Below, piece by piece: positions 1,108 through 51,829 of a stretch of DNA of 64,000 bases; positions within the stretch are counted from its first letter, which is position 1, and each line of letters begins with the position of its first letter. The DNA is taken from assembly GCA_002702575.1 (NCBI GenBank), contig PAAJ01000018.1, positions 209,328 to 273,327 on the forward strand, in the 5' to 3' direction. The translations under genes were made by a program, and so were the position numbers. Under the pieces are notes generated by a model. That model was not told where the DNA came from. It searched no databases and saw only the letters and a program-made list of their open reading frames with translations. The DNA is from Phycisphaerae bacterium (GTDB lineage: Bacteria; Planctomycetota; Phycisphaerae; Phycisphaerales; SM1A02).

Positions 1108-2337
1108 ATGTGCCTCGATCAGGGCACCTTCCCGGGAATCGATGCCACCGTGCGAACCATCGCGATCGTGAATCAGAAAGGCGGCTGTGGCAAGACGACC
1201 ACGGCCATCAACCTCGGAGCCGTCGCAGCGGCTCGAGGAATCCGTACGCTTGTTGTCGACATGGATCCCCAGGGCCACTGTGCGGCTGGATTGGGCGTTC
1301 CCATGGACGGCATCGAGGCGGGTGTGGTCGAGGCCATGCTGGCCAGTCAGCCAGATCCAGATGCCTTCAATCGGCTCTGGCCAGTTGGACGAAACCTGTC
1401 TTTGCTCCCCAGTACGATCATGCTCGCCTTGCAGGAATCATCCGAAGGTGAACTTTCAAGACTTGCGGACAGGGATCAGCGATTGGCGGGGGCGTTGCAG
1501 TGTCTTGCAACAGGCCATGATCTTTGCCTCATCGATTGTCCTCCCTCCATTGGTCTTCTGACCTTCAACGCCCTCCGGGCTGCCTCCGAGGCCATTGTCC
1601 CGGTCGAAACGGGTTATTTCGCACTTCAGGGGGCGCACCGCCAGCGACAGACCATCGAGGCCCTTGTCCACCGACTGAACAGACCCCTTGAGTGTCACAT
1701 GTTGCCAACCCTGCATGACCCGGGGTCCGCACTGGCAATCAAGATTCTCGCAACGCTGCGGCAGCACTTTGATGACGTCCTGATTCCTGTTCAGATTCGG
1801 GAGAACGAAGCCTTTCGAGTCGCTGCAAGCCTGGGACGTCCGGTCGTGGAGCATGCACCCGATTCCGATGCCAGACGAGACATCGAAATGCTTCTGGACT
1901 GGCTGCTGGCCCATGTCCCGCAACAGGAAGCGGCGTCGTCCATCGCGCCTGCATCTCAACCAAATTCACGCGTCGCGGAAATCGCCAAGCGAGTGGAATC
2001 CAATGAGTTGGCCACAAGTGAGCTGCCCGTTCCGGTCACCTTCGGTGTAGATGTCACCGATGCAGGCGTCCGATTCAGGCAACCGGGTGGTCCACAGCAG
2101 GTGATGGCGGTCTGCGGGGATTTCAACGGCTGGTCCATGTCTGCAACACCCATGGAATTCAATGCGGAAAAGCGACTGTTCGAAGCGACCATCCCCCTGC
2201 CACCAGGTGAGTATCGCTACCAGATCGCTGTGGATGGACGGATGCATCGGGACCCCTACAACGATTCCGAACAGTCTGATCCAGATCGTCCGGTCAGTCG
2301 TCTGGTTGTCGATTCTCCGGAGGCTCCCAGGCAATGA
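1108..2337 (+). CDS. ParA/MinD-family ATPase fused to a C-terminal CBM48 (AMPK-beta/isoamylase-N type) glucan-binding domain
   Basis: Deviant Walker A NQKGGCGKTT, A' box LVVDMDPQGH and Walker B LCLIDCPP. The C-terminal ~95 aa reads VMAVCGDFNGW...PLPPGEYRYQIAVDGRMHRDPYN, which resembles CBM48. Confidence 0.85.
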   Translation: MCLDQGTFPGIDATVRTIAIVNQKGGCGKTTTAINLGAVAAARGIRTLVVDMDPQGHCAAGLGVPMDGIEAGVVEAMLASQPDPDAFNRLWPVGRNLSLLPSTIMLALQESSEGELSRLADRDQRLAGALQCLATGHDLCLIDCPPSIGLLTFNALRAASEAIVPVETGYFALQGAHRQRQTIEALVHRLNRPLECHMLPTLHDPGSALAIKILATLRQHFDDVLIPVQIRENEAFRVAASLGRPVVEHAPDSDARRDIEMLLDWLLAHVPQQEAASSIAPASQPNSRVAEIAKRVESNELATSELPVPVTFGVDVTDAGVRFRQPGGPQQVMAVCGDFNGWSMSATPMEFNAEKRLFEATIPLPPGEYRYQIAVDGRMHRDPYNDSEQSDPDRPVSRLVVDSPEAPRQ

Positions 2338-3626
2338 GTCGATTGCGCGATGACATCGAGCAATTGACTGCAAGGCTGACAACAGCCGTCGACGCCAAGC
2401 CTGATCGACCCAGCGTGTGTGTACTGCTCATGGGCCATCTCCCTGTCCGTGCCGGACTTTGGAGACTGCCTGCCGCAAGGCGGCTTCTGCCCGATTGTGA
2501 GCAGATCCTCGTTGTTCGATGCGAGGGAGAAGAGGTGTTCCTCGAGTGCATCGGTCGTTTCGACATGGTCCTCTCGGACACCCCGGATCTCTTCGATCAG
2601 CTGCCCTCCAAGACAACGGTCGTCATCGTTCCAGAGTCCTCGACGACTGCAGACGACATCAAGGCATTCGATCCGGATTCGATCGCACTCGTGACTGCTG
2701 GTGACCAGGCAGCGACCGCCGGTGCGTATCGCATGCTCAAGAGCATGGATCTTCCAGATGGCCAGGTCGTTGATCTGGTGATCGCGGGAAGCGAGGGCGT
2801 GTCGGTCGAGGAGACGGCATCGCGGCTGCAGGAAACCGTGAGCAGGCATCTTGAGCTGACCATGAACCTCAAGGGTGAGATTCCCAGAATTGAGGCGGAT
2901 ACCGGACTGACCCAATCCACCGTGATGAAGCTGCCTGAAGGTGGTCTTCAAGCGATTGTTCGACGAGTCCGCAGAGGGATTAGGCAAACGAGCAGTGCAC
3001 GGACGGCCTCAGATCGTCTGATGTCTTCCGGAGACCTCGATCAGGCCTCGGCCATGTCGTCCTTGCCAGCATCGATGCCTCTGGAGGTCGAGCAGGACAT
3101 CCCGTCGAGCCATGATGAGGAACCCTGCGCCCGTCTTTCGCCGGTCGCGCCAGTGCCGCAATGGTCCTCTGCCGCTCCGCAGGCCGTCACCATGGCAGAA
3201 GAAGACGAACGTCATCCCGAGAAACGTACCCCGCGATCAGCCGCTGAAGATCATGTCTCCGATGCTGCAGCCGAGCTGTGTGCGCATGTGCCCGGTCTTC
3301 GCAAGTTGCCGGTTCAATGTCCCGATCATGAAGCCATCGAGTTGGCCATTGATGAAACGGGCAGCCTGCATCTCGTGACACGTTGCGAAGACGTGTTGCA
3401 TGTACCGGCCGTACTTGCGTGGATCGTGCGTCATCACACGCTGCTGGAGATGGCATTGCCTGATACCTGCTTCGGGCAGACAGCGGAGCCCGCCGTCCAC
3501 GTGTTGAGTGAAGATCTCGATGTCCTGTGTGGCCTGAGGCATTCGTCGTGGCAGCCACATCTGCTGGTACGGGTGGACCAGCAGGGACCCGCCGGCTGGA
3601 CCAGCGTTCCGCTGGGCAGCGACTGA
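2334..3626 (+). CDS. hypothetical protein, possible P-loop-less MinD/ParA-like fold with acidic/Ser-rich linker
   Basis: 430-aa ORF whose start overlaps the ParA stop (ATGA at 2334-2337). VCVLLMGHLPVRAG sits where a Walker A would be. LVTAGDQAATAGAYRMLKSM resembles the MinD/FlhG family. No confident family assignment. Confidence 0.6.
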   Translation: MSRLRDDIEQLTARLTTAVDAKPDRPSVCVLLMGHLPVRAGLWRLPAARRLLPDCEQILVVRCEGEEVFLECIGRFDMVLSDTPDLFDQLPSKTTVVIVPESSTTADDIKAFDPDSIALVTAGDQAATAGAYRMLKSMDLPDGQVVDLVIAGSEGVSVEETASRLQETVSRHLELTMNLKGEIPRIEADTGLTQSTVMKLPEGGLQAIVRRVRRGIRQTSSARTASDRLMSSGDLDQASAMSSLPASMPLEVEQDIPSSHDEEPCARLSPVAPVPQWSSAAPQAVTMAEEDERHPEKRTPRSAAEDHVSDAAAELCAHVPGLRKLPVQCPDHEAIELAIDETGSLHLVTRCEDVLHVPAVLAWIVRHHTLLEMALPDTCFGQTAEPAVHVLSEDLDVLCGLRHSSWQPHLLVRVDQQGPAGWTSVPLGSD

Positions 3627-3698: not shown

Positions 3699-4196
3699 AT
3701 GGCGACAACCAGGAAAATCAGCGAATCAGCCATGGCCGGTGCCATGGGTCGCACCTATTCGCCCATGCGGGCCAATCGCATGGCCAACAGGTGGTTGGGT
3801 CTCGTCGTGGCCTTGGTAGGTCTTGCATTGATCGGGGTCGCCTCCAGCTTGACCCCGGCTGAGGAAGGTATTGGTACCCACAAGTCTCTGGGTCTGCCGG
3901 AGTGCAACTGGATTGCGACGATGGACCTGCCGTGTCCAACCTGTGGGATGACAACCGCCTTCAGTCACACCGTACGGGGCAACTGGCTGGAAGCGATGCA
4001 GGCACAACCCCTTGGGCTGGTATTCTGCATTGTCGCCGCCATGGCGGTGCTTGGTGGACTGTGGACATTGCTGACAGGCGCCTCGGTCGGCTCACTCGTC
4101 GCAACCGTTTGGAATCGATGGTGGGTCTGGGGTCTGATCGTCCTGGCCTTGCTGGCCTGGGTATGGAAAGTGCTCTCGCACATTGGAGTCTTCTGA
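3699..4196 (+). CDS. DUF2752-like integral membrane protein
   Basis: Several hydrophobic helices and the CPTCGMTTAF motif characteristic of DUF2752. Confidence 0.6.
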   Translation: MATTRKISESAMAGAMGRTYSPMRANRMANRWLGLVVALVGLALIGVASSLTPAEEGIGTHKSLGLPECNWIATMDLPCPTCGMTTAFSHTVRGNWLEAMQAQPLGLVFCIVAAMAVLGGLWTLLTGASVGSLVATVWNRWWVWGLIVLALLAWVWKVLSHIGVF

Positions 4197-4900
4197 TGAG
4201 GATGATCACTCGAATGCTGTTGTGCCTGATGGCAGCCATGTCAGTGGTTGCGGCTGGTGGCTGCGCAATCGGTTTTCTCGGCGCGGGTCTCGCTCAGAAC
4301 TTCGAGTACCAGAAACTGATCGAAGTCCTGCCTCGATATGAGGGTCTGGAACATCGCACGGTTGCCGTGATTGTTGATGCTGATCTGGCCACGTTGTATG
4401 AGTATCCGACACTCTGTGACACGGTTGCAGCAGGTGTCACGAAGAAGCTCGGCGACAAGATCTCCGGCATTCGTCTTCTGTCCCAGCGCTATATCCGGAA
4501 CTGGCAGTTCGCCACACCTCAGTGGAATGCACTGCCCTATGGCGATATCGCCCGTCAGCTCAATGTCGACAGGGTGGTCTTGATCGACATCCAGGAGTTT
4601 CGACTGCACCCACGCGGCAATCGCTGGATGTGGGATGGTGAATGCGTGGCGATGGTGGGCATCATCGAGCGTGACAACATCGAGCCCGACGAACTTGCAG
4701 AGAACTTCCAGGTCACTGCACGGTTTCCAAAGTTGAAGGAGCTGGACAGGCAGGGCGCTTCGGAAGAAGCCATCAAGACCGGCCTGTATGTAGAGTTCAT
4801 CAAGCGTGTAGCCTGGTTGTTCTACCCGCATCTGCAACCGAAGTATCCGGATCAATACAAGCCAGACCTGGATCGCGACAATACCGATATCGAGATCTGA
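4196..4900 (+). CDS. putative lipoprotein (paralog A)
   Basis: The internal ATG at 4196 overlaps the upstream stop (TGATG). Signal peptide MRMITRMLLCLMAAMSVVAAGGC. The longer ORF from 3902 overlaps the DUF2752 gene and is rejected. Confidence 0.6.
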   Translation: MRMITRMLLCLMAAMSVVAAGGCAIGFLGAGLAQNFEYQKLIEVLPRYEGLEHRTVAVIVDADLATLYEYPTLCDTVAAGVTKKLGDKISGIRLLSQRYIRNWQFATPQWNALPYGDIARQLNVDRVVLIDIQEFRLHPRGNRWMWDGECVAMVGIIERDNIEPDELAENFQVTARFPKLKELDRQGASEEAIKTGLYVEFIKRVAWLFYPHLQPKYPDQYKPDLDRDNTDIEI

Positions 4901-4904
4901 TCAG

Positions 4905-5579
4905 ATGCCTATTCGCCCCGTCAACGTGATGCTTTCGCTTGCAGCATTGGGATCCGTTCTGATGAGTGGATGTAATGTCGCCAGTACGGTCGCCTACATC
5001 ACGACACCCAATCCTGTGATGGAAGCGCAGTATGAACTCAAGAACGAATCCACGGTCATCTTCGTCGATGATCGAAGGAGTCAAATCAGTCCAGTCAGAC
5101 TGAGACGGACGATTGGCGATGTCGCCAGTGAAGGGCTGCTCGAGGAAGAGGTGGTCAGCGATGTGATCTCACCGAGGGATGCCACCGCAGCAGCCCGTCA
5201 ATTGGACAGGGGTGCCAAGCCAGCCGCCATCAGTACCGTCGGCAGGATGGTCGGAGCCGATCAGGTGATCTACGTCGAGGTGATCCAGTTCAATCTGACA
5301 TCATCGGATGGCTACACGCCGGATCCTTATGCATCCTGTCGTGTTCGTGTGGTTGATCTTGTCGAGAAGAAACGCAAGTTCCCGGATCCGGAGGAATCGC
5401 CCGCTCATTTCGTCGAAGTCAGGCTTCCCGGGGAGCGTTCGCTTTCCATGAATGAATCGAGAGTTCGTCAGGAGCTTGGAGAGCGACTGGCAACGGAAAC
5501 GGGTCTGCAGATCGCACGACTGTTCTACGATCACGAAGTGGCCGCGATCGGGGCCAATCTGCTGTATCGAGACAAGTAG
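4905..5579 (+). CDS. putative lipoprotein (paralog B of 4196-4900)
   Basis: Signal/lipobox LAALGSVLMSGC. It shares blocks with the upstream lipoprotein: TVIFVDD/TVAVIVDAD, ADQVIYVEVIQF/VDRVVLIDIQEF and IARLFYDHE/VAWLFYPH. Confidence 0.6.
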   Translation: MPIRPVNVMLSLAALGSVLMSGCNVASTVAYITTPNPVMEAQYELKNESTVIFVDDRRSQISPVRLRRTIGDVASEGLLEEEVVSDVISPRDATAAARQLDRGAKPAAISTVGRMVGADQVIYVEVIQFNLTSSDGYTPDPYASCRVRVVDLVEKKRKFPDPEESPAHFVEVRLPGERSLSMNESRVRQELGERLATETGLQIARLFYDHEVAAIGANLLYRDK

Positions 5580-5590
5580 CGGACGTTCTC

Positions 5591-6718
5591 ATGTCGATGA
5601 CCGACTCCAGCCAGCCCATGGTGCTGCATCTTCACGATTTCGATACCTGCCCGGCACTCCTTGAGGATGTTCGTGAGATGCGTCCGCGGGATCTCTTCAT
5701 CTCCGTAGGCGATCCTGCTGCGTCGAGTGGCCCGGTGCTCTCGCCAGCTCGCAATCGAATGTTCTCCAGCGGAGACAACGGTCTGGTGAGGTTGTTGAAG
5801 CATCTCGATTCGCGGTCAGCTCGAGTTGGATGCATTCATGCGTGGGGAATGCGGAGCACGTCCATGCTGCTTCGAGCGCCGGAAGGCATCCGGCTCATCT
5901 CGACGATCGATGGTTATCGATCCGATGTCCCCGAGGCGAAGACGGTGGCGACCGTACTGCGAACAGGTCGCGTTGATTCCCTTCTAGGTTCCTGTGCGAC
6001 CCAGCGAGCCGTGGCCGACTGTCTCGGCGATGTCGTCCGCCGTACAGGGCAGGAACAGGTCGTCTGCCCGGTACTTGATCCGGATCGCATCGCCTGCCGG
6101 GATGACGATCTGAGAGCTCGATGGGGTGCCGAAAGCGGATCACTTGTCATGGGTGTGGTGGGTCGTCCGATGAACACATTGAATCTCATGGATCAATGCG
6201 GTCTCGCGGTCCGGTGCAGTCTTCTTGGTCGTCATGTTGTCATGCTCGTATCGTCGAATGCACAAAGGCGAGGAGATCTCGTCCGATGGCTGGAGGATGC
6301 CTGTCCGGAAGTCCAGCTTGTCTTCGATGATGTCATCGAGCGAACCCATGAAGTCGCCAGTTCACTTGATGTCGCCATTGCGCCTGCTGCAGTTGGTTAC
6401 AGGACACGAATCTGTGACGTTGGACCGATCATGACCATGTTGGCAGCAGGTCGTCCAGTCATTCTGGGAGACGGCCATCCCGCTGCTGAATATGCGGATC
6501 GTGAAGATCTCCTCCGGATCGGTCAATCCCATGATCAGCATGAATCGACTCGTTGGCTCATGGATCGCCTGGACAGCGGATCAGGTCAGGCGGAACGAGA
6601 TCGTGCGAAGCGTCGTTACGAGCATTTTCGTACGGTGCTGCTCAGTTCATACCCACAAGCAATGGAGGGGGCGTGTCACGATTCGAGTGGTTCGAGCAGA
6701 TCCATGGCCGCATCGTGA
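5591..6718 (+). CDS. divergent glycosyltransferase family 1-like protein
   Basis: 375-aa ORF 11 nt after the preceding gene. The C-terminal half follows the GT-B pattern (LVMGVVGR..., MLAAGRPVILGD), but the usual E-x7-E signature is not evident. Confidence 0.45.
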   Translation: MSMTDSSQPMVLHLHDFDTCPALLEDVREMRPRDLFISVGDPAASSGPVLSPARNRMFSSGDNGLVRLLKHLDSRSARVGCIHAWGMRSTSMLLRAPEGIRLISTIDGYRSDVPEAKTVATVLRTGRVDSLLGSCATQRAVADCLGDVVRRTGQEQVVCPVLDPDRIACRDDDLRARWGAESGSLVMGVVGRPMNTLNLMDQCGLAVRCSLLGRHVVMLVSSNAQRRGDLVRWLEDACPEVQLVFDDVIERTHEVASSLDVAIAPAAVGYRTRICDVGPIMTMLAAGRPVILGDGHPAAEYADREDLLRIGQSHDQHESTRWLMDRLDSGSGQAERDRAKRRYEHFRTVLLSSYPQAMEGACHDSSGSSRSMAAS

Positions 6719-7764
6719 TAGATGGATTTCAGAAGTGATTCTGGAATTGAATGGCCCTTGAGATTCGGTGAATCCAGTGGGCCGTACCGTTCTGGTTCGA
6801 CCATCATCAGATCCGGATCGGCAATCGGCGAAGGGCCGTCATAGTCGGATTCGAAGAGCGTTCGCAGGGCCCAGTAGCGGCTGGCGTAGAGATCCCACGC
6901 TTCCTCAGGTGATGTCGCCTGAGGAGGCATGTCCGGATTGTCTTCGACCGGAGGCGCGAAGTGTTCGTCCCGCGTCACGATATCGGAGCCGAAGAGAATC
7001 CTTCCCTTCCATCTTTGAAGAAAGTCGATGAAGACGTCCCGTGGATGTTTGCTCAATTCCCTGACAACCCATTTCGTTGCCGAAGTATCAAGGTAAAGAT
7101 TGTCATGGCGTTCAAGGAGACCATCAAGCATCGGAAGATTTTCCGGCCAGCCACCCATGTGTGCGGCAATCCACGGCTGCGAATAGGTGTCGAGTGCTGC
7201 TTCAAGTGATTCGTACTGTTCGAGCTTGGTTCCATAGAAACTTGAATCCGAATATCGCGTCTTGAACCATGTGTCCGGATCAGCGATATGGGTCATGAAC
7301 ATCATGCCAAGTTCACTGGCAACATCCATGACGGCTCTGCGTTCCGGGTGCGAGAGATCCAGCAGAAGACGGTCGCCTGATTCCTCTCCATAGTCACGGC
7401 CACGGGGGGCTGCCCAGAACTTGACGATTCGTGAGCCGAGACGATGAAACTCCCGGATTCGTTCCTGGTAGCCCTTGCCATGGGCGTACTTCCGATCCGG
7501 ATTGCCGAATTCAGGTGTGGCGATGAAACGAATGCGATCACCCATGATCTGCCGGACCGTCTCGACTTCCGGCAGTGGAGTCATGCTGTAGGTGAGCGTG
7601 ATACCGTATGCGGCAGCGATCTCTCGATAGCATCTCACGGCATCCGTTCCGTGGATATGGGAGTGGACATCAATGATCGGGGCCGGAGGGTGCCAGTTCT
7701 TCGGCAGCTCATGAAAGTCCAGATCGAGCAGATTGGCGGCATGGCGAGGAGTTGATTCGGGCAT
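6676..7764 (-). CDS. metal-dependent amidohydrolase (TIM-barrel)
   Basis: IIDVHSHIHG (HxH) near the N-terminus, then MFMTHIAD and LFGSDIV. Start set at the MPESTPRH ATG (7764). The upstream part of the 599-aa ORF runs antisense to the GT4 gene. Confidence 0.8.
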   Translation of the reverse strand: MPESTPRHAANLLDLDFHELPKNWHPPAPIIDVHSHIHGTDAVRCYREIAAAYGITLTYSMTPLPEVETVRQIMGDRIRFIATPEFGNPDRKYAHGKGYQERIREFHRLGSRIVKFWAAPRGRDYGEESGDRLLLDLSHPERRAVMDVASELGMMFMTHIADPDTWFKTRYSDSSFYGTKLEQYESLEAALDTYSQPWIAAHMGGWPENLPMLDGLLERHDNLYLDTSATKWVVRELSKHPRDVFIDFLQRWKGRILFGSDIVTRDEHFAPPVEDNPDMPPQATSPEEAWDLYASRYWALRTLFESDYDGPSPIADPDLMMVEPERYGPLDSPNLKGHSIPESLLKSIYHDAAMDLLEPLES

Positions 7765-7773
7765 GGTTCGGGA

Positions 7774-8886
7774 ATGATAGGGCAGCCCAATAAGCCGGAT
7801 GTGGTTCTTGTGCATGACTGGTTGGTCGGTGTGCGAGGTGCCGAGCGTGTTCTGGATCGATTCGCTCGAATCTGGGGTCCTACGGACCTCTACAGTCTGG
7901 TTCATGACGGACGCCCATTGACACCTGCCATCGACGCCTGCGACTTCCATTTGTCTCCGATGCAACACATGCCCGGCGGTGCCGGCTCGCTGCGTCGGTG
8001 GTACCTCCCGATGCTGCCGGCAATGATTGAACGATTGAAGATTCGATCGTGTGATCTCGTGCTCTCGGACAGTTCCTCTGTCGCGAAGGCCATACGGCCT
8101 CCCGAAGGCGTGCCTCATCTGTGCTATTGCCATTCGCCTGCACGATACATCTGGGAGCAAACATCGGATTACGCGACTGGTTCGATGGGAAAACTCCGTG
8201 TCGCTGGTTTGCGGGCCGTTCGTGGTCGATTTCAGAAATGGGATCGAAAAACCACACGCAGAGTCGATCGAATCCTGGCCAACAGTCGGCACATCGCAAA
8301 GCGGATCGAGCGATGTTGGGACCGCGAAGCCAAGGTGGTCTACCCTCCGGTTCGAACTCGAGAGTTCACTCCTGATTCGAATACGGACCGCGAGAACTGG
8401 TTTCTGGTCGTCGGCGCGCTCGAGCCGTACAAACGAACGGACCTCGCCATCGAGGCGGCTGTTCGGGGTGGCCATCAGCTGAAGGTCGTCGGTGGTGGCA
8501 GTCAGCTGGAATCACTGCAACGTGATCCGCCCCAGGGTGTCGAGTTTCTTGGCCGAATTCCCGACGATGAGCTGCTGTCGCTCTACCGTCGAGCGAAGGC
8601 CTTGCTGTTTCCTCAGGAAGAGGACTTCGGCATCGTTGCGGTTGAGGCCCAGTCATGTGGCTGCCCCGTGATCGCCTTGGCGAGGGGTGGTGCGATGGAG
8701 ATCGTGCGGGAGGATACCGGGTTGTTCGTCGGGGATCAGACAGCGAACGCATTTGCGGATGCGATGACGGAAGCGACTCGATGGTCGATTCAATCCGATG
8801 CCTGTCGTGAGAATGCCGAGCGTTTTTCGTGCGAGGTCTTCGACCAGGCCATGCAGGATGAAGTGAATCAGATGATCGGTACCTGA
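7774..8886 (+). CDS. glycosyltransferase family 4 (GT-B)
   Basis: VVLVHDWLVGVRGAERV at the N-terminus and the EDFGIVAVEAQSCGCPVIA motif. Divergent from the amidohydrolase gene. Confidence 0.8.
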   Translation: MIGQPNKPDVVLVHDWLVGVRGAERVLDRFARIWGPTDLYSLVHDGRPLTPAIDACDFHLSPMQHMPGGAGSLRRWYLPMLPAMIERLKIRSCDLVLSDSSSVAKAIRPPEGVPHLCYCHSPARYIWEQTSDYATGSMGKLRVAGLRAVRGRFQKWDRKTTRRVDRILANSRHIAKRIERCWDREAKVVYPPVRTREFTPDSNTDRENWFLVVGALEPYKRTDLAIEAAVRGGHQLKVVGGGSQLESLQRDPPQGVEFLGRIPDDELLSLYRRAKALLFPQEEDFGIVAVEAQSCGCPVIALARGGAMEIVREDTGLFVGDQTANAFADAMTEATRWSIQSDACRENAERFSCEVFDQAMQDEVNQMIGT

Positions 8887-16402: not shown

Positions 16403-17836
16403 ATGAATACACGTTCCTCCATCCAGGGGCTCCATCCAGCCATCGCGACACCTGAGGTCGAGGCGGCGATCGACGCTGTGATCGCTGGCATCGACCAGGC
16501 CCAGTCCAAGCTCACCGGCGTTCGATCTCCGGATCCAGACAAGCAGGCGGCGGCCGCCGCCACGATTCAGACCTATGGGGAAGCCCGGGGCAGGGGGCTC
16601 TGGTATCCATTGATGGGCTCTGGTCTGGGCAGGGGTGCCCTCGTCGAGCTGACGGATGGCTCCGTGAAGTACGACTTCATCACCGGAATCGGAGTCCATG
16701 CCTTCGGCCATGGAGATCTGGACATCATCCGCACGGCCATCATGGCTGCGACCGGCGATGTGGTGATGCAGGGGAATCTTCAATGCAATGAAGACGCTGC
16801 GGCGTTCTCCGAGGCGTTGCTCTCAGGGGCGGCTGATGGAGGTGAACGGAAACTGGCCCATTGCTTCCTCACCAACTCCGGGGCCTTGGCAAATGAAAAC
16901 GCCTTGAAGATCTGCATGCAGAAGACGGGAGGTGCGCCCCGTGTGCTCACGTTCGAGCATTGCTTCGCAGGTCGTACCACGACGATGGCTCAGGTTGGTG
17001 ACAGTGCCGGCGCTCGACAGGGGCTGGCCTTGAATCTCGAGGTCGAGCATCTCCCGTATTTCGATCCAGCCGATCCCGAGGGCTCGACTTCGCGTGCTGT
17101 TGAGCAATTGGAACAGGCGATTCGCCGCTACCCGTGTCAACATGCGTGTCTGGCGTTGGAACCACTCCAGGGTGAAGGTGGCTTCAATGTCGCCCCCCGA
17201 TCGTTCTTCCAGCCCCTGATGGAACGTGCCCGGGCAGCCGGTATTCCCATCTGGTTCGACGAGGTTCAGAGTTTCGGACGAACGGAAGCCATGTATCGAT
17301 ACCAGTGGCTCGATCTCGAACCCGACGTGGTCACGGTCGGCAAGATGTCCCAGGTCTGTGCAACGCTCTACACGCCGGACATGAATCCAAATCCTGGCCT
17401 GCTGAGTGCGACGTTCATCGGCTCGACGGCATCGCTGCGGGTCGGCCGACGGATGTTGGAACGACTCCAGGCGGAGGGTGCCTACGGTGAGGATGGTCGT
17501 CACGCTCGATTGCATCAGGCCTTCCGTCGATTCGCCCGTCAGCTGGTCGAATCGAATCCAGAACATTTTCCGTCGCCTCATGATCCCGGAAGGCCAGCGA
17601 GTCCAGACGAAGTCATCGGCGGTGCCGGCGGCATGATGCGACTGACTCCCTATGGTGGTGATGCGACGAGAATCAAGCCACTGCTCATGAGAATGCTGGA
17701 TGCCGGTGTCATCGCCTTCTCATGTGGACACGGTCCGGTTCATCTCCGATTCCTGCCGCCCATGGGAGTCCTGACCGAATCCGACATCGAATCCGTTCTT
17801 GGAATCGTGGGTGATGTCCTTGAGGAGGATGCCTGA
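16403..17836 (+). CDS. class-III PLP aminotransferase (candidate succinylornithine transaminase)
   Basis: FLTNSGALANENALKI, WFDEVQSFGRT and VTVGKMSQV. Located directly upstream of astA/astD. Confidence 0.8.
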   Translation: MNTRSSIQGLHPAIATPEVEAAIDAVIAGIDQAQSKLTGVRSPDPDKQAAAAATIQTYGEARGRGLWYPLMGSGLGRGALVELTDGSVKYDFITGIGVHAFGHGDLDIIRTAIMAATGDVVMQGNLQCNEDAAAFSEALLSGAADGGERKLAHCFLTNSGALANENALKICMQKTGGAPRVLTFEHCFAGRTTTMAQVGDSAGARQGLALNLEVEHLPYFDPADPEGSTSRAVEQLEQAIRRYPCQHACLALEPLQGEGGFNVAPRSFFQPLMERARAAGIPIWFDEVQSFGRTEAMYRYQWLDLEPDVVTVGKMSQVCATLYTPDMNPNPGLLSATFIGSTASLRVGRRMLERLQAEGAYGEDGRHARLHQAFRRFARQLVESNPEHFPSPHDPGRPASPDEVIGGAGGMMRLTPYGGDATRIKPLLMRMLDAGVIAFSCGHGPVHLRFLPPMGVLTESDIESVLGIVGDVLEEDA

Positions 17837-18900
17837 TGTTCCTGGTACGCAGTGCGATGACGGATGATCATGATGCGCTGCTTCGTCTTGCGAAGACGGT
17901 GCACTCCAACAATCTCCCGAGCGAAACCTTGCCGCTTCGTGATTTGCTTGTGAAATCAAGACGGAGTTTTCTCGGCAAGATTCCTCCTCGGGATCGTCAG
18001 TACGTGTTTTCCGTCGTCGAACCCGAATCGGGCAAGGTCGTGGGGACCTCCAGCCTCATTGCTGGCAAGGGAACCGAGGCGTTGCCTCGTCTTGTTCTGA
18101 AGGTCCGAAAGCGGGAACACTACAGTCGTGATCTCCAGACCGGTCATGTCCAGATCACGCTGCAACTCTGCCAAGACACCTCCGCATCGACCGAGGTTGG
18201 GGGACTTGTTCTCTCTTCGGCATACCGTGGCACGTCCGATCGTCTGGGCTCACTGCTCAGTAAGGTTCGTTTCAGTTTCATCGGCATGCATCCCGGGGAC
18301 TTTGCCGATCGGATCATCGGCGAGATCATGGGAACGTTGACGCCCGATGGGCGGACGATGCTCTGGGATCATCTTGGCCGACGCTTCATCAACCTGTCCT
18401 ATCAGGAGGCGGATGCCTTCAGCAGGACATCGAAAGAGTTCATTACATCGCTCTTCCCGGACATCGAGATCTACGCCTCGCTTCTTCCTGCTGAAGCCCG
18501 TCGTCTCATCGGTCATGTCAGTCCGGCTGCAATCCCGGCCCAGCGCATGCTCGAAAGACTCGGTTTCCAGCACAACGATGAAGTCGATCCCTTTGATGGG
18601 GGGCCCTATCTCGAGGCTGTTCGAGACGAGATTCCACTGGTGCGAACAACGACATCGGCTTCATTCGCTGGCACGATCGAGGAGTCTTCCTCCTTGCCTG
18701 CAGCGATCGTATGTGTTCACGAAGGTGCGGATTTCCGTGCGGTTCGATGCGCTTACCAGGCCGAAGGTGATCAGATTCATCTTCCGGAAGCTGCCGTCAA
18801 GGCGCTTCGTCTCAAGCCCGGTCACTCACTCCACTACACCCCACAGCCCAAGTTTGAAGCCGTCGCCGATCCGTCCTCACAGGAATCGGTAGCTTCATGA
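17836..18900 (+). CDS. astA: arginine N-succinyltransferase
   Basis: End-to-end resemblance to AstA (YVFSVVEPESGKVVGTS..., DPFDGGPYLEA). TGATG overlap with the upstream gene. Confidence 0.85.
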   Translation: MFLVRSAMTDDHDALLRLAKTVHSNNLPSETLPLRDLLVKSRRSFLGKIPPRDRQYVFSVVEPESGKVVGTSSLIAGKGTEALPRLVLKVRKREHYSRDLQTGHVQITLQLCQDTSASTEVGGLVLSSAYRGTSDRLGSLLSKVRFSFIGMHPGDFADRIIGEIMGTLTPDGRTMLWDHLGRRFINLSYQEADAFSRTSKEFITSLFPDIEIYASLLPAEARRLIGHVSPAAIPAQRMLERLGFQHNDEVDPFDGGPYLEAVRDEIPLVRTTTSASFAGTIEESSSLPAAIVCVHEGADFRAVRCAYQAEGDQIHLPEAAVKALRLKPGHSLHYTPQPKFEAVADPSSQESVAS

Positions 18901-20414
18901 GTCCATCGCAACCACTGCCAGCAAATGATGTCATCGATGGTGTTTCATGTCCGATCAGCGGGGATGATCTGATTTCGACGGATCCGGCCAGTCCCACCTC
19001 GGTGATCTGGTCGGGATCACCAAGCTCGAAGCATGTTGATGCGGCGGTTGAAGCAGCCAGAAACGCGTTCGGCGGCTGGTCGTCACTCTCCATGGAAGCT
19101 CGAGCACAACATCTCATCCGATGGGGTGAAGTCACGAAGGCCCATGCTGATGAACTCGCTGATCTGATCGCCCGGGAGGTCGGCAAGCCGGCTGCTGAGG
19201 CAAGGATCGAAGCGAACGCGCTCAGTGGGAAGGTGGCACTGACCCTTGAGGACGCGGTTGCCGGTCGTATTCGGGACTGGACGGCGGAAGCCGGTGCCGG
19301 ACGGACGGGGCGTTGCCGCTACAGACCTCATGGTGTCATGGCGGTGATCGGTCCCTTCAATTTTCCTGCTCATCTTCCAAACGGTCAGTTCGTACCAGCC
19401 ATGTTGGCGGGCAACACCGTTGTGTTCAAGCCTTCCGAGCTGGCGCCAGCCGTCGGTCAGAGACTGGGTGAACTCATGCAGGAAGCGGGGCTGCCTCCAG
19501 GCGTCTTCAATGTGATCCAGGGTCGCAGCGAAGAGTCCAGACAACTGTGTACGCACAAGGATGTCAACGGGATTCTCTTCACGGGATCCTGGCCAGTTGG
19601 CCGAAGCATCCTTGAGCAGAATCTGGATACGCCTGGCCGCATCGTTGCATTGGAACTCGGAGGCAACAATCCCGCCATCGTGCATGAGGATGCCGATCTT
19701 CGACTTGCCGTCATTGAATGCGCTCGAGCAGCCTTCGCCACCACGGGCCAACGGTGTACGTGTACCCGGCGAATTCTGGTTCACGAACGGGTTGCCGATG
19801 AGTTCCTCAGCGCCCTGTGCACGACGGCAACCACGCTTCTGGTCGGGGCTCATGATGATCCAGTCGCACCGTTCATGGGTCCGCTCATCACCGAGGCAGC
19901 AAGAACCCGTGTGCTTGATTCACAGAGAGCGATCGTGTCTCAGGGGGGTCGATCTCTGGTGCCCGCTGTCGAACTCCCGCGAGATGGCTGGTTCCTGTCT
20001 GCAGGCATCATCGAGGTCGACGGTTTTCAGCTTGATCAGGACGAGGAAATCTTCGGACCACTTGTCCAGGTGTCGACCGTGTCCTCGATCGACGAGGCGA
20101 TCCAACAAGCCGGTCAGACCCGATACGGTCTGGCCGCATCGGTCTTCACGCAGGATGAGAAGATCTTCGATCACTGCTTCGCCGGGATCTCGACGGGATG
20201 TCTGAACTGGAACGTTGGAACAGCAGGTGCCTCCAGCCGACTGCCGTTCGGTGGAGTCGGCCGAAGTGGAAATCACCGGCCTGCGGCAGCACTCGCAATC
20301 GATTCATGCGCCTATCCGGTTGCCAGTCTGCTGCAACCAGGCCCGGAGATTCCCATCCCGGCAGGCATGACCTGGAAAGATGAATGGTTGCCGTCCGCGG
20401 CCGATCAAGATTGA
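18897..20414 (+). CDS. astD: succinylglutamate-semialdehyde dehydrogenase (aldehyde dehydrogenase family)
   Basis: VVFKPSELAP, LELGGNNPAIV and TTGQRCTCTRR motifs. ATGA overlap with astA. Confidence 0.85.
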   Translation: MSPSQPLPANDVIDGVSCPISGDDLISTDPASPTSVIWSGSPSSKHVDAAVEAARNAFGGWSSLSMEARAQHLIRWGEVTKAHADELADLIAREVGKPAAEARIEANALSGKVALTLEDAVAGRIRDWTAEAGAGRTGRCRYRPHGVMAVIGPFNFPAHLPNGQFVPAMLAGNTVVFKPSELAPAVGQRLGELMQEAGLPPGVFNVIQGRSEESRQLCTHKDVNGILFTGSWPVGRSILEQNLDTPGRIVALELGGNNPAIVHEDADLRLAVIECARAAFATTGQRCTCTRRILVHERVADEFLSALCTTATTLLVGAHDDPVAPFMGPLITEAARTRVLDSQRAIVSQGGRSLVPAVELPRDGWFLSAGIIEVDGFQLDQDEEIFGPLVQVSTVSSIDEAIQQAGQTRYGLAASVFTQDEKIFDHCFAGISTGCLNWNVGTAGASSRLPFGGVGRSGNHRPAAALAIDSCAYPVASLLQPGPEIPIPAGMTWKDEWLPSAADQD

Positions 20415-44345: not shown

Positions 44346-45542
44346 ATGTCTTCCCTGTTCTCCACCATGCGATCTACGCTGCTTGTTCTGTTTCTGGTCA
44401 TGACCGCCTGTGCCGTTTCCGTCCAGGCAGATGAAGCCAAGTCTGAAGCATCCTCGGATTCGGCCATCGCGGCCAAGTATGCCTATGTCCTCATGAAGAC
44501 CAATCAGGGTGACATCCTGCTTCGACTCAACGAGACGCTCGCGCCGATGACGACAGCCAACTTCCTCCAGTACGTGAAAGACGGCGCCTACGACGGAACC
44601 ATCTTTCATCGAGTCATCGATGGATTCATGATTCAGGGTGGCGGCTTCGATACGAACTACGAGAAGCGACCGACGCGTTCGCCCATCAGGAACGAGTGGA
44701 TCAATGGTCTCAAGAACCAGGAATACACGATCTCGATGGCTCGTCTTGGTGGCAATCCTGATTCAGCGACGAATCAGTTCTTCATCAATGTGCGTGACAA
44801 CGCCAACCTTGATCAGCCACAGCGTGACGGCGCAGCCTATGCGGTCTTTGGTCATGTGATCGCTGGCCAGAAGACGGTTGACACCATCAAGGCGACAGAA
44901 AAGGAACGACGGCAGGGTGCGTTCGTCGATTCGCCGAAGGATCCGATCATCATCGAAAAGGTGACGAAGGTCGATCTGGCCGAAGCAGAGAAGATTGTCG
45001 AGGCTCAGGGAGAATCGAAGTCCGTCTGCACTGCGGCCACGAAGAACGAAGAAGCCGCCATGGTCAATGCCAAACGAATTCAGGATGCCATGGAAGCCGC
45101 CAAGAAGAGACAGGAGAACGCTGCAATGCTGACACGTACGGATGTTGAACCGTCAGAACTCCCGGGTGTCAAGGTTGACCGTCCAGCCGACGGTGAGAAT
45201 GCGGGAATGAAGTGGTGGGTCCTTGAGAAGGGCGAGAAGGGTGGTGCCAAGCCATCCGGAATGCAGGACCAGGTCCTTGTTCACTATTCCGGCTACCTGC
45301 TCGACGGCAGCAAGTTCGACTCCTCAGTCGATCGTGGTCAGCCCATCAAGTTCCCTCTGGGTGGTGTCATCCAGGGGTGGTCGCTTGGTGTTGGCCAGAT
45401 GCAGGTCGGTGAGAAGAAGAAGCTCCTGATTCCAGCAGATCTGGCCTACGGCGCTCGTGGCCGTCCACCGGTCATTCCCCCGAATGCCACCCTCGTATTC
45501 GATGTGGAGCTCATCGACGTCATGCCGGCTCCCGGCCGCTGA
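44346..45542 (+). CDS. dual-domain peptidyl-prolyl isomerase (N-terminal cyclophilin, C-terminal FKBP), secreted
   Basis: Signal peptide. Cyclophilin block [36 protein letters not shown] block [18 protein letters not shown]...[12 protein letters not shown]...[10 protein letters not shown]. Confidence 0.88.
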
Positions 45543-45713: not shown

Positions 45714-46361
45714 ATGAAGATCAGCCAGATGCCCGCCAGTCCATCGATTCTCAACGAGCCGGTACTCGTCCTCAACCGGGGATATACGGCACTACGGGTC
45801 ATTTCGGTGAGGCAGGCATTCGTCCTTCTGTTCAGGCAGATTGCCGAAGTGATCTCCGTCAATCAGGGTCGATACGAGACCTTCGACATCTCCTCATGGA
45901 TCGAAATCGCCGATCTCCAGAGACAATTCGAATGTGGTGATCATGACTGGATCCGGGCCGCCAGTCGATATGTAGCGGCGCCCCGCATCATCCGTTTGAC
46001 GAGTTCGAATCGTCAGCCGGACTTCCATGTCCGCCTCAATCGCAGAAACCTCTTTGCTCGAGACCGAAACCGGTGCCAGTATTGTGGAAAGAAGTTTTCA
46101 CTGGCCGAGTTGTCGATTGATCACGTTGTTCCGATTTCAAGAGGTGGAGCCAACACCTGGGACAACCTTGTCTGCGCCTGTATTCGATGCAACACCCGCA
46201 AGGGCAGTCGGACGCCCCGCGAGGCTGGATTGAATCTGATCACGAGCCCCCGGCAACCTCGTCACTGTCCTGATCGAGCGTTGTCTCTTCGCCGCAAGCA
46301 ATATGAAGAGTGGAAGGTATTCCTGAATGAAGCATACTGGACGGTCGAACTTCGAGATTGA
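45714..46361 (+). CDS. HNH endonuclease family protein
   Basis: CQYCGKKFSLAELSIDHVVPISRGGANTWDNLVCACIRCNTRKG. Confidence 0.8.
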   Translation: MKISQMPASPSILNEPVLVLNRGYTALRVISVRQAFVLLFRQIAEVISVNQGRYETFDISSWIEIADLQRQFECGDHDWIRAASRYVAAPRIIRLTSSNRQPDFHVRLNRRNLFARDRNRCQYCGKKFSLAELSIDHVVPISRGGANTWDNLVCACIRCNTRKGSRTPREAGLNLITSPRQPRHCPDRALSLRRKQYEEWKVFLNEAYWTVELRD

Positions 46362-49190: not shown

Positions 49191-49733
49191 TCAATCCAGT
49201 GTTGATCGTGCCGTTGAGGTCATGGGGTCCCATTGAAGTGAGCCCCACAGTGGCCACTCTCTTTGAACCTCGACCTGAGTCGGACTGCCGCCGTGGATGT
49301 GCATGAAATGCGATTCGTCGATGCGCACCATGATCTCTCCGCCGACGGCTCCGATGAGCCATGAGCCCATCAGAACGATGACGCAAGGCAGGATGAGGGA
49401 GTTGATCGAGAATGCAACCGGGGTCCTGTGGCCTCCGCATTCAAGGCAGATGTCTCCCCGGGTGCCCTTCATGGTGTGTCCGCAGTGACCGCATTCACCC
49501 CGCTTCATTCGATCCGCAGCCAGTCGACAGGCCCAGATATCCGGCATGGCCCACAGGGCGGTGACGGCGATCATTGGAATCATGAGAAGCAGCGTCAGCA
49601 TGAGGATCACGAACAGTGATCCGATGCCTGGTTGAACGACACCAAAACTGGAACGAATGAAGCAGTAGTCGAGAAAAGACCAGCTGATGACGACCAGCAG
49701 CACGGAGGCTCTGAGAAGAATGCCGGGACTCAT
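49191..49733 (-). CDS. hypothetical membrane protein with CxxC...CxxC zinc-ribbon loop
   Basis: The start at 49733 overlaps the UbiD-family stop (ATGA). TM helices flank RGECGHCGHTMKGTRGDICLECGGH. Confidence 0.5.
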   Translation of the reverse strand: MSPGILLRASVLLVVISWSFLDYCFIRSSFGVVQPGIGSLFVILMLTLLLMIPMIAVTALWAMPDIWACRLAADRMKRGECGHCGHTMKGTRGDICLECGGHRTPVAFSINSLILPCVIVLMGSWLIGAVGGEIMVRIDESHFMHIHGGSPTQVEVQREWPLWGSLQWDPMTSTARSTLD

Positions 49734-51772
49734 GGGGTTCGTTCGAGTCCGAACAGCTCGGGCTGCGATGCGATCTTGGCCAGAACCTCTGGATCCATCT
49801 TGATCGGGGGCGGCCATTTTCTGACAGGCTGGCCGTTGCGATCCTCGTGTTCGAGCTTGCTCGTCCCATCGAGTCCGAGACGGTGTTCCTGCCAGTGGAT
49901 ATCCCGGCCGGGATCCATGTTCGCAGCCAGATGAAAGAGGGTCATGTTCGCATCCTCGAGATCAACCGAGCCATCAACCGCCACGACGCACCCGGTCCAA
50001 TCGGCTTCGAGTTTCAGGACGGCATCGATCGTCGAGCTGGCCACACCGGACGTCTCTTCGGACTTCTCGATTCCCAGCAGAATGACACGACCCAGTCCCC
50101 AGTCCGGGATGTGATAGCGGTGATTCGAACCGCTCATGATGTTCTCGAGTGCAGGTTGCAACTCTTCCATGTTCGCTCTTGGCGGCACGCCTGCAGCGAC
50201 CCCTTGGACTTCTTCGCCGGGCCAGGCGGTCGTGGCATCGAAGCCGATCTTGTGTCCTGCGCCGAGTCTTGGAGAGGCGTGATCGAGAATGTCCAACGGT
50301 CCATTGACGACTTCGACGTCACGCTTGAAATCACAGTTGGATGCAATGGCACGGAGCACCGCCATGTCATCGTGAACATCGATTCCCTCTTCGACAACGA
50401 CGATCATCTTCGTCCAGGCCATCTGGCCAGCACCCCAGATCGAATGCATGAGTCGCCGTGCCTGCAACGCATAGCTCTTTCGAACTGAAACGAACACGCA
50501 GTTGTGGAAGCATCCGAAGAGCGGAAGGTGGTAATCGATGATGTCCGGAATCAGGATCTTGAGCAGTGGGAGGAAAATCCGTTCTGTCGCCTTCCCGAGG
50601 TAGTAGTCCTCCTGAGGCGGGATTCCCACAATCGTCGTCGGGTAGATTGCATTCCGACAGTGGGTCAATGCCGTCACTTCCAGTGTCGGATAGCGATCGG
50701 GCATGGAATACCAGCCCGTGTGGTCGCCGAACGGTCCTTCGATCACGGCGCCATCCCCCAATGGTTCATCCGAGTCCGGCTCCCAGCCGATGGTTCCGGC
50801 ATCGGTTCTGACGAAGCCCTCGATGACGATCTCCGCATTGGCCGGCACTCTCAGTGGGACGGTCTTCGCATTCACGAGCGGAATGCCCTTGCCGTTCAGG
50901 AAACCGGCCATCAAGAGTTCACTGATTCCCGGTGGCATCGGTGCCGTTGCGGCATATGGAAGGACCGATTCGCCACCAAAGCAGATGGCCACGGGCATCG
51001 GTTCTCCGATGGCCTTCCAGGACCGCCAGTGGGCTGCGCCGTCATGATGCAGGTGCCAGTGCATGGCAAGATGCGTGCCGTCGATCAGCTGGACTCGATA
51101 CATCCCGATGTTGTGCGAGGGTGGCTTCGACTTTCCACGGTCATCCGCATGGATCGTGTGGATTCCAGCAAAGGTGATGTAGCGCCCTCGGCCCTCGGCG
51201 GTACCTGCCTCTTCCGGTGTCACGGACCAGCCGACAGCTGAGGGATCTCCATCATGTGGCCAGCATTTGATGATCGGGAGTCGAGTGAGATCGACTTCTC
51301 CACGCGAGGCGAGTTTGACGACCTGTTGGCATCGCCCGTTGCGCTTGAGCTTCGGCGGTGCTTTCAGCAGCGGCTTGAATTCCCGCAGTTTGGCGATCGC
51401 ATCGAGAATGCCGCTGGGTGGCGTGGGCTGACTCAGTGTCGCAAGTTGTTCCGCGATTCCCGTGAAGCCCGTTTCATCATCACAGCCCAGTGCCTGCTCC
51501 ATGCGGCGGTATGAACCCAGCACGTTGATCGCGAGTGGAAAATCACATCCCTCGATGTTCTCGAACAGGAGTGCCTTGCCTCCGGTCTGGAACATGGCTG
51601 GATCAAACTGCAGTGCGGCACGACTTGGATTGGGTGATCTGGACTTGCTGTGCAGATCCGCGATGGCCGCCACTTCAAGCATGGGTGAAACAGGATGCGT
51701 CACCCGGAAAAGCTCTCCCTGGGCTTCTAGGGCTTGAATCATGTCCTGAAGTGTCTGGAAACCGTTGGGCAT
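49730..51772 (-). CDS. UbiD-family (prenyl-FMN dependent) decarboxylase
   Basis: NIGMYRVQL, HWHLHHDGAAHW and GPFGDHTGWYS. Start set at MPNGFQTLQDMIQALEAQGEL (51772). The longer 895-aa ORF runs antisense into the ABC gene. Confidence 0.85.
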   Translation of the reverse strand: MPNGFQTLQDMIQALEAQGELFRVTHPVSPMLEVAAIADLHSKSRSPNPSRAALQFDPAMFQTGGKALLFENIEGCDFPLAINVLGSYRRMEQALGCDDETGFTGIAEQLATLSQPTPPSGILDAIAKLREFKPLLKAPPKLKRNGRCQQVVKLASRGEVDLTRLPIIKCWPHDGDPSAVGWSVTPEEAGTAEGRGRYITFAGIHTIHADDRGKSKPPSHNIGMYRVQLIDGTHLAMHWHLHHDGAAHWRSWKAIGEPMPVAICFGGESVLPYAATAPMPPGISELLMAGFLNGKGIPLVNAKTVPLRVPANAEIVIEGFVRTDAGTIGWEPDSDEPLGDGAVIEGPFGDHTGWYSMPDRYPTLEVTALTHCRNAIYPTTIVGIPPQEDYYLGKATERIFLPLLKILIPDIIDYHLPLFGCFHNCVFVSVRKSYALQARRLMHSIWGAGQMAWTKMIVVVEEGIDVHDDMAVLRAIASNCDFKRDVEVVNGPLDILDHASPRLGAGHKIGFDATTAWPGEEVQGVAAGVPPRANMEELQPALENIMSGSNHRYHIPDWGLGRVILLGIEKSEETSGVASSTIDAVLKLEADWTGCVVAVDGSVDLEDANMTLFHLAANMDPGRDIHWQEHRLGLDGTSKLEHEDRNGQPVRKWPPPIKMDPEVLAKIASQPELFGLERTP

Positions 51773-51829
51773 GTGCAGCAGGATAGCCTTGGCAGGAATA
51801 CAAGATGCCTCCAACATGGATAAACTTTC

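Follow-up and report, generated by a model that had tools for sequence, protein, structure and literature searches.

ATPases of the ParA/MinD superfamily are a general bacterial means of placing chromosomes, plasmids, carboxysomes, chemoreceptor arrays and the site of division. As described so far, such systems recognize their cargo through a separate adaptor, and the ATPase acts on the nucleoid or the membrane. Glycogen is the most common bacterial carbon store, and to our knowledge no system that positions or partitions it has been described. Here, we analyzed a 64,000-nucleotide stretch of a Phycisphaerae bacterium genome (contig PAAJ01000018.1, positions 209,328 to 273,327 of the forward strand; hereafter the window), in which a gene at 1108–2337 (+) encodes a 409-amino-acid protein that joins a ParA-type ATPase domain to a C-terminal domain of the carbohydrate-binding module (CBM) family CBM48. 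An earlier reading of these letters (the sequence-only reading) proposed that this fusion could act as an adaptor-free system tethering a Brownian-ratchet ATPase directly to glycogen granules. We regard the fusion as a previously uncharacterized form of ParA/MinD positioning ATPase, distinguished by the covalent CBM48 and by a new family of partner proteins, and that the window copy is an atypical member of it. The host phylum, Planctomycetota, lacks FtsZ, divides in an unusual way and has a poorly understood cell biology.

The fusion was identified from the list of open reading frames (ORFs), from Pfam matches and from an exact match to a public database entry whose title is 'hypothetical protein CMJ29_08440 [Phycisphaerae bacterium]'. 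This ORF contains every motif quoted in the sequence-only reading (NQKGGCGKTTTAINL, LVVDMDPQG, CLIDCPPS and VMAVCGDFNGWS...PPGEYRYQIAVDGRMHRDPYN). Since most homologues begin at MRTIAIVNQKGG (MRTIAIV), the true start of the gene may be the GTG at nucleotide (nt) 1150 (codon 15) rather than the ATG at 1108. Residues 1–12 have a predicted local distance difference test (pLDDT) score below 50 in an AlphaFold2 model of the fusion, which was computed with 16 homologues as input and has a mean pLDDT of 80.5.

The ATPase domain, of the ParA/Soj class, spans amino acids (aa) 16–270 (1153–1917, +), as delimited by phmmer against PDB sequences and by Foldseek. Pfam AAA_31 matches aa 16–195 with 134.3 bits (E = 5.7e-39) and CbiA matches with 60.6 bits, and the best phmmer matches are Myxococcus xanthus ParA (8RAY, E = 3.8e-40) and Thermus thermophilus Soj (1WCV, E = 1.4e-35). 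The domain is modeled with confidence and is matched to 8RAY by Foldseek with E = 3.8e-22, a target-normalized template-modeling score, TM(target), of 0.89 and a root-mean-square deviation of 2.3; on 8RAY and Soj together, TM(target) ranges from 0.87 to 0.90. A deviant Walker A motif, KGGCGKT (nt 1177–1197, +), lies within the ATPase domain in the stretch NQKGGCGKTT (aa 22–31). K29, D53 and D143 are kept in 85 of 85 family members and K24 in 84, the exception being a protein cut N-terminally by a contig end. The domain is thus predicted to be a catalytically intact member of the Soj/ParA class, and because the signature lysine, the catalytic lysine and both aspartates are kept, ATP-dependent sandwich dimerization is expected.

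Chromosomal ParA/Soj proteins (8RAY; 1WCV/2BEK) share this fold and the deviant Walker A core with the fusion at 36–38% identity. Unlike them, the fusion has no ParB/parS context, has Gly206 and Ala235 at two DNA-binding positions (see below), and carries an extra linker helix and the C-terminal CBM48. It also has a Cys in Walker A, which is present in 82 of 85 family members where ParA/Soj has Val. A second Cys (C58, nt 1279–1281; 'HCA' after DMDPQxH) is invariant in a 16-sequence alignment, and the conserved C27 and C58 might form a redox- or metal-sensitive pair near the nucleotide site. None of the NCBIfam equivalog models reached its cut-off: ParA_partition scored 103 bits against 180, the BcsQ model TIGR03371 88.3 against 157.85 and the MinD model TIGR01968 36.2 against 212.9. 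These scores place the fusion within the ParA/MinD superfamily and outside its named subfamilies.

The ATPase domain is followed by a disordered linker (aa 271–310; 1918–2037, +), with pLDDT below 50 apart from a predicted helix at aa 288–298. This helix lies in the conserved segment NSRVAEIAKRVES (aa 286–298; nt 1963–2001, +), and the disorder between the two domains extends over about 40 aa (aa 275–310). The C-terminal block is predicted to form a CBM48/AMPK-beta-type beta-sandwich with a degenerate sugar site (aa 311–401; 2038–2310, +). Pfam AMPK1_CBM matches aa 326–389 with 35.0 bits (curated cut-off, 26.8) and CBM_48 matches aa 333–379 with 26.1 bits (curated cut-off, 22.4), and the closest PDB sequence is the AMPK beta-1 CBM (1Z0N, E = 1.1e-5). 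In the AlphaFold2 model the domain is all-beta (aa 311–400, pLDDT 91–94), with eight strands between aa 313 and 401; the Foldseek list for the whole model is filled by ParA matches and includes no CBM48 superposition. From its profile and sequence matches, the C-domain is assigned to the CBM48/AMPK-beta modules, which upholds the assignment made in the sequence-only reading.

Relatives of the fusion occur in at least 587 species-level genomes in GTDB (one genome per GTDB species was scanned, and 587 of the 600 pattern matches listed were confirmed as relatives). Planctomycetota labels are attached to 75 of 80 fetched loci, among which Phycisphaerae, Sedimentisphaerales, Tepidisphaerales, Pirellulales, Isosphaeraceae and Planctomycetales are represented. 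PF16561 and ParA domains are found together in all 120 best database matches, down to ~43% identity. Among 87 loci examined, 81 encode both domains in a single ORF; two others are cut by contig ends (L027 and L065 in our numbering), and four truly lack the CBM (L031, L045, L056 and L059). These four, natural 'CBM-deletion' variants suited to comparison, have a ParA domain with the linker helix motif, and also the partner, so the core module can do without the CBM. The 81 fusions come as single ORFs from independent assemblies, and the identical protein occurs on 15 contigs, which rules out a frameshift, an assembly artefact or a fusion unique to this genome. The product is a true two-domain protein, conserved through vertical inheritance.

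The architecture is already visible in precomputed Pfam annotations, and source databases label the homologues 'AAA family ATPase', 'hypothetical protein' or, for many JGI entries, 'chromosome partitioning protein'. When a relative with the DNA-binding residues served as query, the best 120 matches were all proteins from metagenomes or metagenome-assembled genomes. The sequence-only reading knew of no characterized example; likewise, we found no description of this architecture, and no experiment on it, in the literature on ParA or ParA/MinD with CBM48, glycogen or Planctomycetes.

Carbohydrate binding by AMPK involves W100, K126, W133, L146 and T148 (numbered as in rat beta-1), which contact the bound sugar and of which any one, when mutated, markedly reduces glycogen binding (PMC2642990); W99 of AMPK beta-2 is a key residue (PMC4650587). 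The corresponding positions were mapped by HMMER alignment to human AMPK beta-1, in which chain numbering equals native numbering. Across 79 fusions, the W100 position is Trp in 78, the K126 position is Arg in 72, Lys in 1 and Gln in 5, and the W133 position is Trp in 70. The C-terminal strand of the family, 'NPFGExNSVVEV', parallels AMPK SQLGTVNNIIQV, with the G-x-x-N tail kept. The family C-domain also shares the FNNWS, GxxxYK/R, VDGxW and GxxNN motifs of the AMPK beta CBM (1Z0N, 2F15), and canonical members keep W100, K/R126, W133 and the tail; the difference is that the module is joined to an ATPase and not to a kinase scaffold subunit. A profile of the family C-domain matches the AMPK beta-1 and beta-2 CBMs over their full length (E ~1e-13), followed by LSF1/SEX4, GlgB, pullulanases and SIP2, all of which are alpha-glucan binders, and AMPK1_CBM is matched by 23 of 23 members. 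Because the sugar contacts are kept and the profile lies closest to alpha-glucan binders, the family as a whole looks like a functional binder of alpha-glucans, and for the family such binding is a reasonable inference.

The window protein retains one of the five sugar contacts. Its W342 aligns with W100, whereas Q372 and M379 take the places of K126 and W133. In the window clade, which is small and an exception within the family, Gln is found at K126 and Met at W133, with Ser at W133 in the branch comprising L005, L008 and L009. The clade tail SDPDRPVSRLVV lacks Asn and has Pro at the L146 position, Asp at G147 and Arg at T148. When the window CBM is compared with that of a related locus (L011), 31 of 91 codons differ only synonymously and 28 change the amino acid; for the ParA domain, the counts are 125 and 43 of 255 codons. 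Judged by these counts, the window-clade CBM is still under purifying selection, evolving faster than the ATPase and not decaying. The C-domain had been said to match CBM48 almost motif for motif: this is true of the fold motifs (FNxWS, PxGxYxY, VDG and DP), but among the sugar contacts only the W100 equivalent is present. Similarly, the proposed glucan tether agrees with the contacts kept across the family but not with the window protein, in which four of the five AMPK contacts are substituted.

A Brownian ratchet on the nucleoid would depend on DNA binding by the ATPase. In Soj this is attributed to two arginines, which we take to be BsSoj R189 and R218. In M. xanthus ParA, the substitution R238E abolishes non-specific DNA binding (PMC12462528). 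The 8RAY chain numbering was calibrated with Y81/E82, which gave an offset of 19 and placed R238 at chain R219. In an ungapped HMMER alignment of the window protein to 8RAY, A235 aligns with R238 and G206 with the second Soj arginine, BsSoj R189. Both DNA-binding positions are basic ('YD[IV]RTK', 'NFNTKLKEA') in 48 of 85 family members, of which 29 lack an adjacent partner and 19 have one. They are mixed in 10, with the partner adjacent in 9, and neither is basic in 27, window protein included, with the partner adjacent in 26 and the remaining locus (L027) cut by the contig end. Since both Soj/ParA arginines are missing, a nucleoid ratchet is doubtful for the window protein. The proposed model is a better fit to relatives in which both the DNA-binding residues and the sugar site are intact, and in many of these no partner gene is adjacent. 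Neither a ParB gene nor the ParB box II motif (GERRxRA) was found in the window or in the 87 loci. A MinD-type C-terminal amphipathic membrane helix is absent from the fusion, whose C-terminus is the beta-sandwich domain in the AlphaFold2 model, and a neighbor scan revealed no min genes near it.

The system was also proposed to be adaptor-free, which is contradicted by a translationally coupled and conserved partner gene. This gene (2334–3626, +; 430 aa) overlaps the fusion stop codon in an ATGA and was defined by homology and by an AlphaFold2 model. Partner homologues sit directly downstream of the fusion in distant loci (E = 2e-34 and 5e-33), and an iterative search found the partner in this position in 56 of 87 loci; overlap with the stop codon of the fusion is frequent. 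An exhaustive profile search yielded 1,519 representative clusters at 50% identity, 771 of them at E ≤ 1e-30, and most members are full-length proteins of 400–550 aa. The partner has no match in Pfam or NCBIfam and thus represents a large protein family without an existing model or annotation.

The partner model comprises an N-terminal motif (aa 1–16, +) that forms a helix, an alpha/beta domain without a P-loop (aa ~25–215; nt 2406–2978, +; block-mean pLDDT mostly 82–96), a disordered region (aa 218–312, +) and a C-terminal alpha/beta domain (aa 313–430; nt 3270–3623, +), for which no PDB sequence match was obtained even at E = 10. For the N-domain, the best Foldseek match is FlhG/FleN (E = 1.5e-5, probability 1.0, TM(target) ~0.45), followed by MinD, ParA and MipZ. 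The place of Walker A is occupied by 'GHLPVRAG', with G-H/N-L-P-V as the family motif, and the partner is therefore not a canonical P-loop NTPase. From one Foldseek match with a modest TM, the N-domain can tentatively be described as a pseudo-MinD fold.

Two conserved elements could connect the partner to the fusion. Most representatives of the partner have DPFDELAxMFLT as N-terminal motif, for which the window clade has RDDIEQLTARLT; the peptide itself is MSRLRDDIEQLTARL in the window partner and DPFDELAAMFLT in relatives. ParB-type partners carry N-terminal ATPase-docking peptides (PMC12462528), which the partner motif resembles in layout, but it is acidic and hydrophobic, not basic. On the side of the fusion, the linker varies from ~45 to 250 aa across homologues, and within it the motif S/G-R-x-x-E-x-x-x-R (window aa 287–295) is invariant in 16 diverse homologues, window type included, with R288, E291 and R295 as the invariant residues. 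The motif persists at the C-terminus of the four CBM-less relatives. Since the helix is kept where the CBM is lost, it is best assigned to the ParA-partner core, with the CBM as an accessory targeting module.

With the partner included, the locus can be compared with other described systems. As in McdA-McdB, a ParA-type ATPase stands beside a small-family partner in which the N-terminal peptide is conserved and a long stretch is disordered, and McdA is among the Foldseek matches of the fusion. In contrast to McdA-McdB and to ParA/MinD systems with separate adaptors, the ATPase itself carries, covalently attached, the module that would bind the cargo or surface. In the Pfam and NCBIfam searches, which involved no direct comparison with McdB, the partner showed no similarity to a described family, and its N-domain looks like a P-loop-less relative of MinD/FlhG in the model. 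MinD, FlhG and FleN belong to the same ATPase superfamily as the fusion, and FlhG/FleN are closest to the modeled partner N-domain, but the fusion lacks a membrane helix, MinC/MinE and flagellar context, and the partner lacks Walker A. BcsQ is likewise a ParA/MinD ATPase and is itself tied to a polysaccharide process, and Pfam CBP_BcsQ aligns with the fusion over its full length. However, the fusion is only 23–24% identical to BcsQ, falls below the NCBIfam cut-off and has no bcs operon, and CBM48 is of the alpha-glucan type.

Taken together, the reading that we favor, at a little under an even chance, is that the fusion and its overlapping partner form a two-protein ATP-switch module, widespread in Planctomycetota, which binds glycogen in canonical members and of which the window copy has a weakened or retargeted C-domain. 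ATP binding would produce the sandwich dimer and thereby present two CBM modules on one particle, so that a polyvalent surface, in canonical members an alpha-glucan or glycogen granule, would be bound strongly only by the ATP form. The partner would dock through its conserved N-terminal peptide, the linker helix of the fusion, or both, and would trigger or gate ATP hydrolysis, resetting the switch. Relatives with the Soj DNA-binding residues could tether glycogen to, or distribute it along, the nucleoid. The analyses above establish what the two domains are, that the catalytic residues are intact, that fusion and partner are conserved and which residues occupy the binding positions; glucan binding, the avidity switch, the role of the partner and the cellular cargo are the parts of this scheme that we infer. 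The window protein has lost both known sets of binding determinants, but its catalytic core and linker helix are intact, its C-domain keeps the predicted CBM fold, and the partner is still present. It belongs to a derived marine Phycisphaerae branch and most likely works with its partner as the same ATP switch, with C-domain binding that is weakened or retargeted, an outcome that we rank above genuine glycogen tethering by this protein.

Several results weigh against this reading. In the window protein, the sugar site is altered by the substitutions K126 to Q372, W133 to M379, L146 to P392 and T148 to R394, and the G-x-x-N tail is absent. Four lineages have lost the CBM while retaining ParA and the partner. 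The domain arrangement in the fusion model is uncertain (predicted TM score, 0.63), and an hhalign comparison of the partner with the ParA domain profile was negative (probability 0.5%). Pfam searches of the ~50 proteins of the 64-kb window identified no genes for glycogen or alpha-glucan metabolism (glgA/B/C/P/X-type domains), and neighbor clustering across the 87 loci revealed no conserved glycogen gene near the fusion. The one link to glucans is the CBM.

A more far-reaching proposal, which we regard as unlikely, is that the whole family is a hitherto unrecognized storage-granule positioning system, in which a ParA/MinD ATPase brings its own glucan-binding module. Members with the Soj DNA-binding residues would need no cargo adaptor to ratchet or tether granules along the nucleoid. 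In window-type members, which have lost DNA binding and always come with the P-loop-less MinD-like partner, a glucan surface or a partner scaffold would replace the nucleoid and membrane as the matrix. If this were true, that matrix would be a third kind of surface for a ParA/MinD switch. A phylum-wide ATPase family with an AMPK-type glycogen-binding module is a concrete and testable candidate for glycogen positioning, and nature has supplied a set of its variants that differ in whether they have the DNA-binding residues, the intact sugar site, the partner and the CBM.

Alternatively, at least in the window branch, the C-domain could have become a module for docking to proteins and have no function in carbohydrate binding. 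The ParA-partner pair could then position or assemble a protein cargo unrelated to glycogen; as these bacteria lack FtsZ, an envelope or division complex is an example. We consider this possible, if rather improbable. It would account for a domain that has lost four of five sugar contacts in the window clade and is still constrained, for the four lineages that dispense with the CBM and keep the partner, and for the lack of glycogen gene context; the AMPK CBM also contacts the kinase domain (PMC4650587), and Planctomycetes have no FtsZ and an unknown division machinery (PMC5147048). However, if no sugar is bound, it is difficult to see why glucan-contact residues are kept in 70–78 of 79 members. 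In addition, every one of the closest relatives of solved structure binds alpha-glucans, and the sole link to division is MraZ, ~8 kb away in Phycisphaerae. The AMPK comparison suggests yet another role, since the AMPK CBM is an allosteric glycogen sensor and not a mere localizer (PMC2642990, PMC4650587). The fusion CBM could then be a regulatory input through which glucan alters ATPase activity or dimerization and couples carbon storage to the output of the ParA-partner pair. The C-domain is nearer to the AMPK beta type than to enzyme-linked CBM48s, and a flexible linker would let it reach the ATPase domain in cis; but the model gives no evidence of CBM-ATPase contact, a linker whose length varies from 45 to 250 aa is more in keeping with a tether than with an allosteric contact of fixed geometry, and the sugar site of the window protein is degenerate. 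A sensor is quite unlikely in our estimation.

We place two further explanations lower still. An organizer of polysaccharide synthesis or export similar to BcsQ, in which the ATPase would localize a glucan synthase complex and the CBM would hold the nascent polymer, is very improbable. The full-length CBP_BcsQ match (58.8 bits), the TIGR03371 score (88 bits), the BcsQ structures among the Foldseek matches and a glycosyltransferase family 4 (GT4) gene ~5 kb downstream, found also in a few related loci, are consistent with it. Against these stand a TIGR03371 cut-off of 157.85, which is far from reached, an identity of 23–24% to BcsQ compared with 36–38% to ParA/Soj, the absence of bcs genes from the window, the specificity of CBM48 for alpha-glucans and not cellulose, and the conservation of the GT4 gene in only ~6 loci. 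That the fusion is a plain chromosome-partitioning ParA, as the JGI label of many homologues and the closest solved structures (chromosomal ParA/Soj) would have it, is hardly credible, as is an artefactual origin, and both are largely refuted. The window and the 87 loci contain no ParB gene or box II motif, both DNA-binding arginines are absent from the window protein, and the ParA_partition score of 103 bits falls short of its cut-off (180); the single-ORF fusions in 81 of 87 loci of independent assemblies, with an identical protein on 15 contigs, speak against an artefact.

Upstream of the fusion lies aroB (8–1039, +), encoding 3-dehydroquinate synthase (Pfam DHQ_synthase and DHQS_C). An aroB homologue is found in 35 of 87 loci, mostly directly upstream of the fusion, and aroB, the fusion and the partner possibly form one operon. 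No promoter- or terminator-like sites were detected between nt 900 and 4000, which agrees with an operon but is weak evidence for one, since the sigma-70 consensus may not fit planctomycete promoters. Neighbor clusters across the 87 loci consist of aroB, the partner and housekeeping genes only, the last being read by eye and not by profile as PurE-, HldE- and LpxK-like proteins and an ABC ATPase, and PADLOC defense models gave no match to the fusion or the partner at E ≤ 0.001.

Downstream of the partner, a run of four genes extends from 3699 to 6718 (+): a DUF2752 gene (3699–4196) is followed by three ORFs without a Pfam match (4205–4900, 4905–5579 and 5591–6718), two of which carry lipoprotein-like 'GC' signal ends. 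The DUF2752-led run recurs in the Phycisphaerae loci L001 and L005 and partly in L007, and the conserved neighborhood may thus extend past the two-gene module. Next to it, a 599-aa ORF (6676–8475, −) overlaps the GT4 glycosyltransferase gene (7774–8886, +), and at least one of these gene calls is wrong. Public calls for the two genes conflict between L001 and L002, with 424 or 362 aa for the minus-strand gene and 233 or 370 aa for the glycosyltransferase.

Elsewhere in the window, genes for a class-III aminotransferase, an arginine N-succinyltransferase (AstA) and an aldehyde dehydrogenase follow one another at 16403–20414 (+) and resemble a gene cluster for arginine breakdown by the arginine succinyltransferase (AST) pathway. 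A 398-aa protein (44346–45542, +) combines cyclophilin-type and FKBP-type peptidyl-prolyl isomerase domains. A UbiD-family decarboxylase (49730–52417, −) is, at 895 aa, far longer than typical, with ~225 aa before UbiD_N and two UbiD_C matches. Finally, a stand-alone HNH endonuclease gene (45714–46361, +; 215 aa) is located amid housekeeping genes and may be the remnant of a mobile element.

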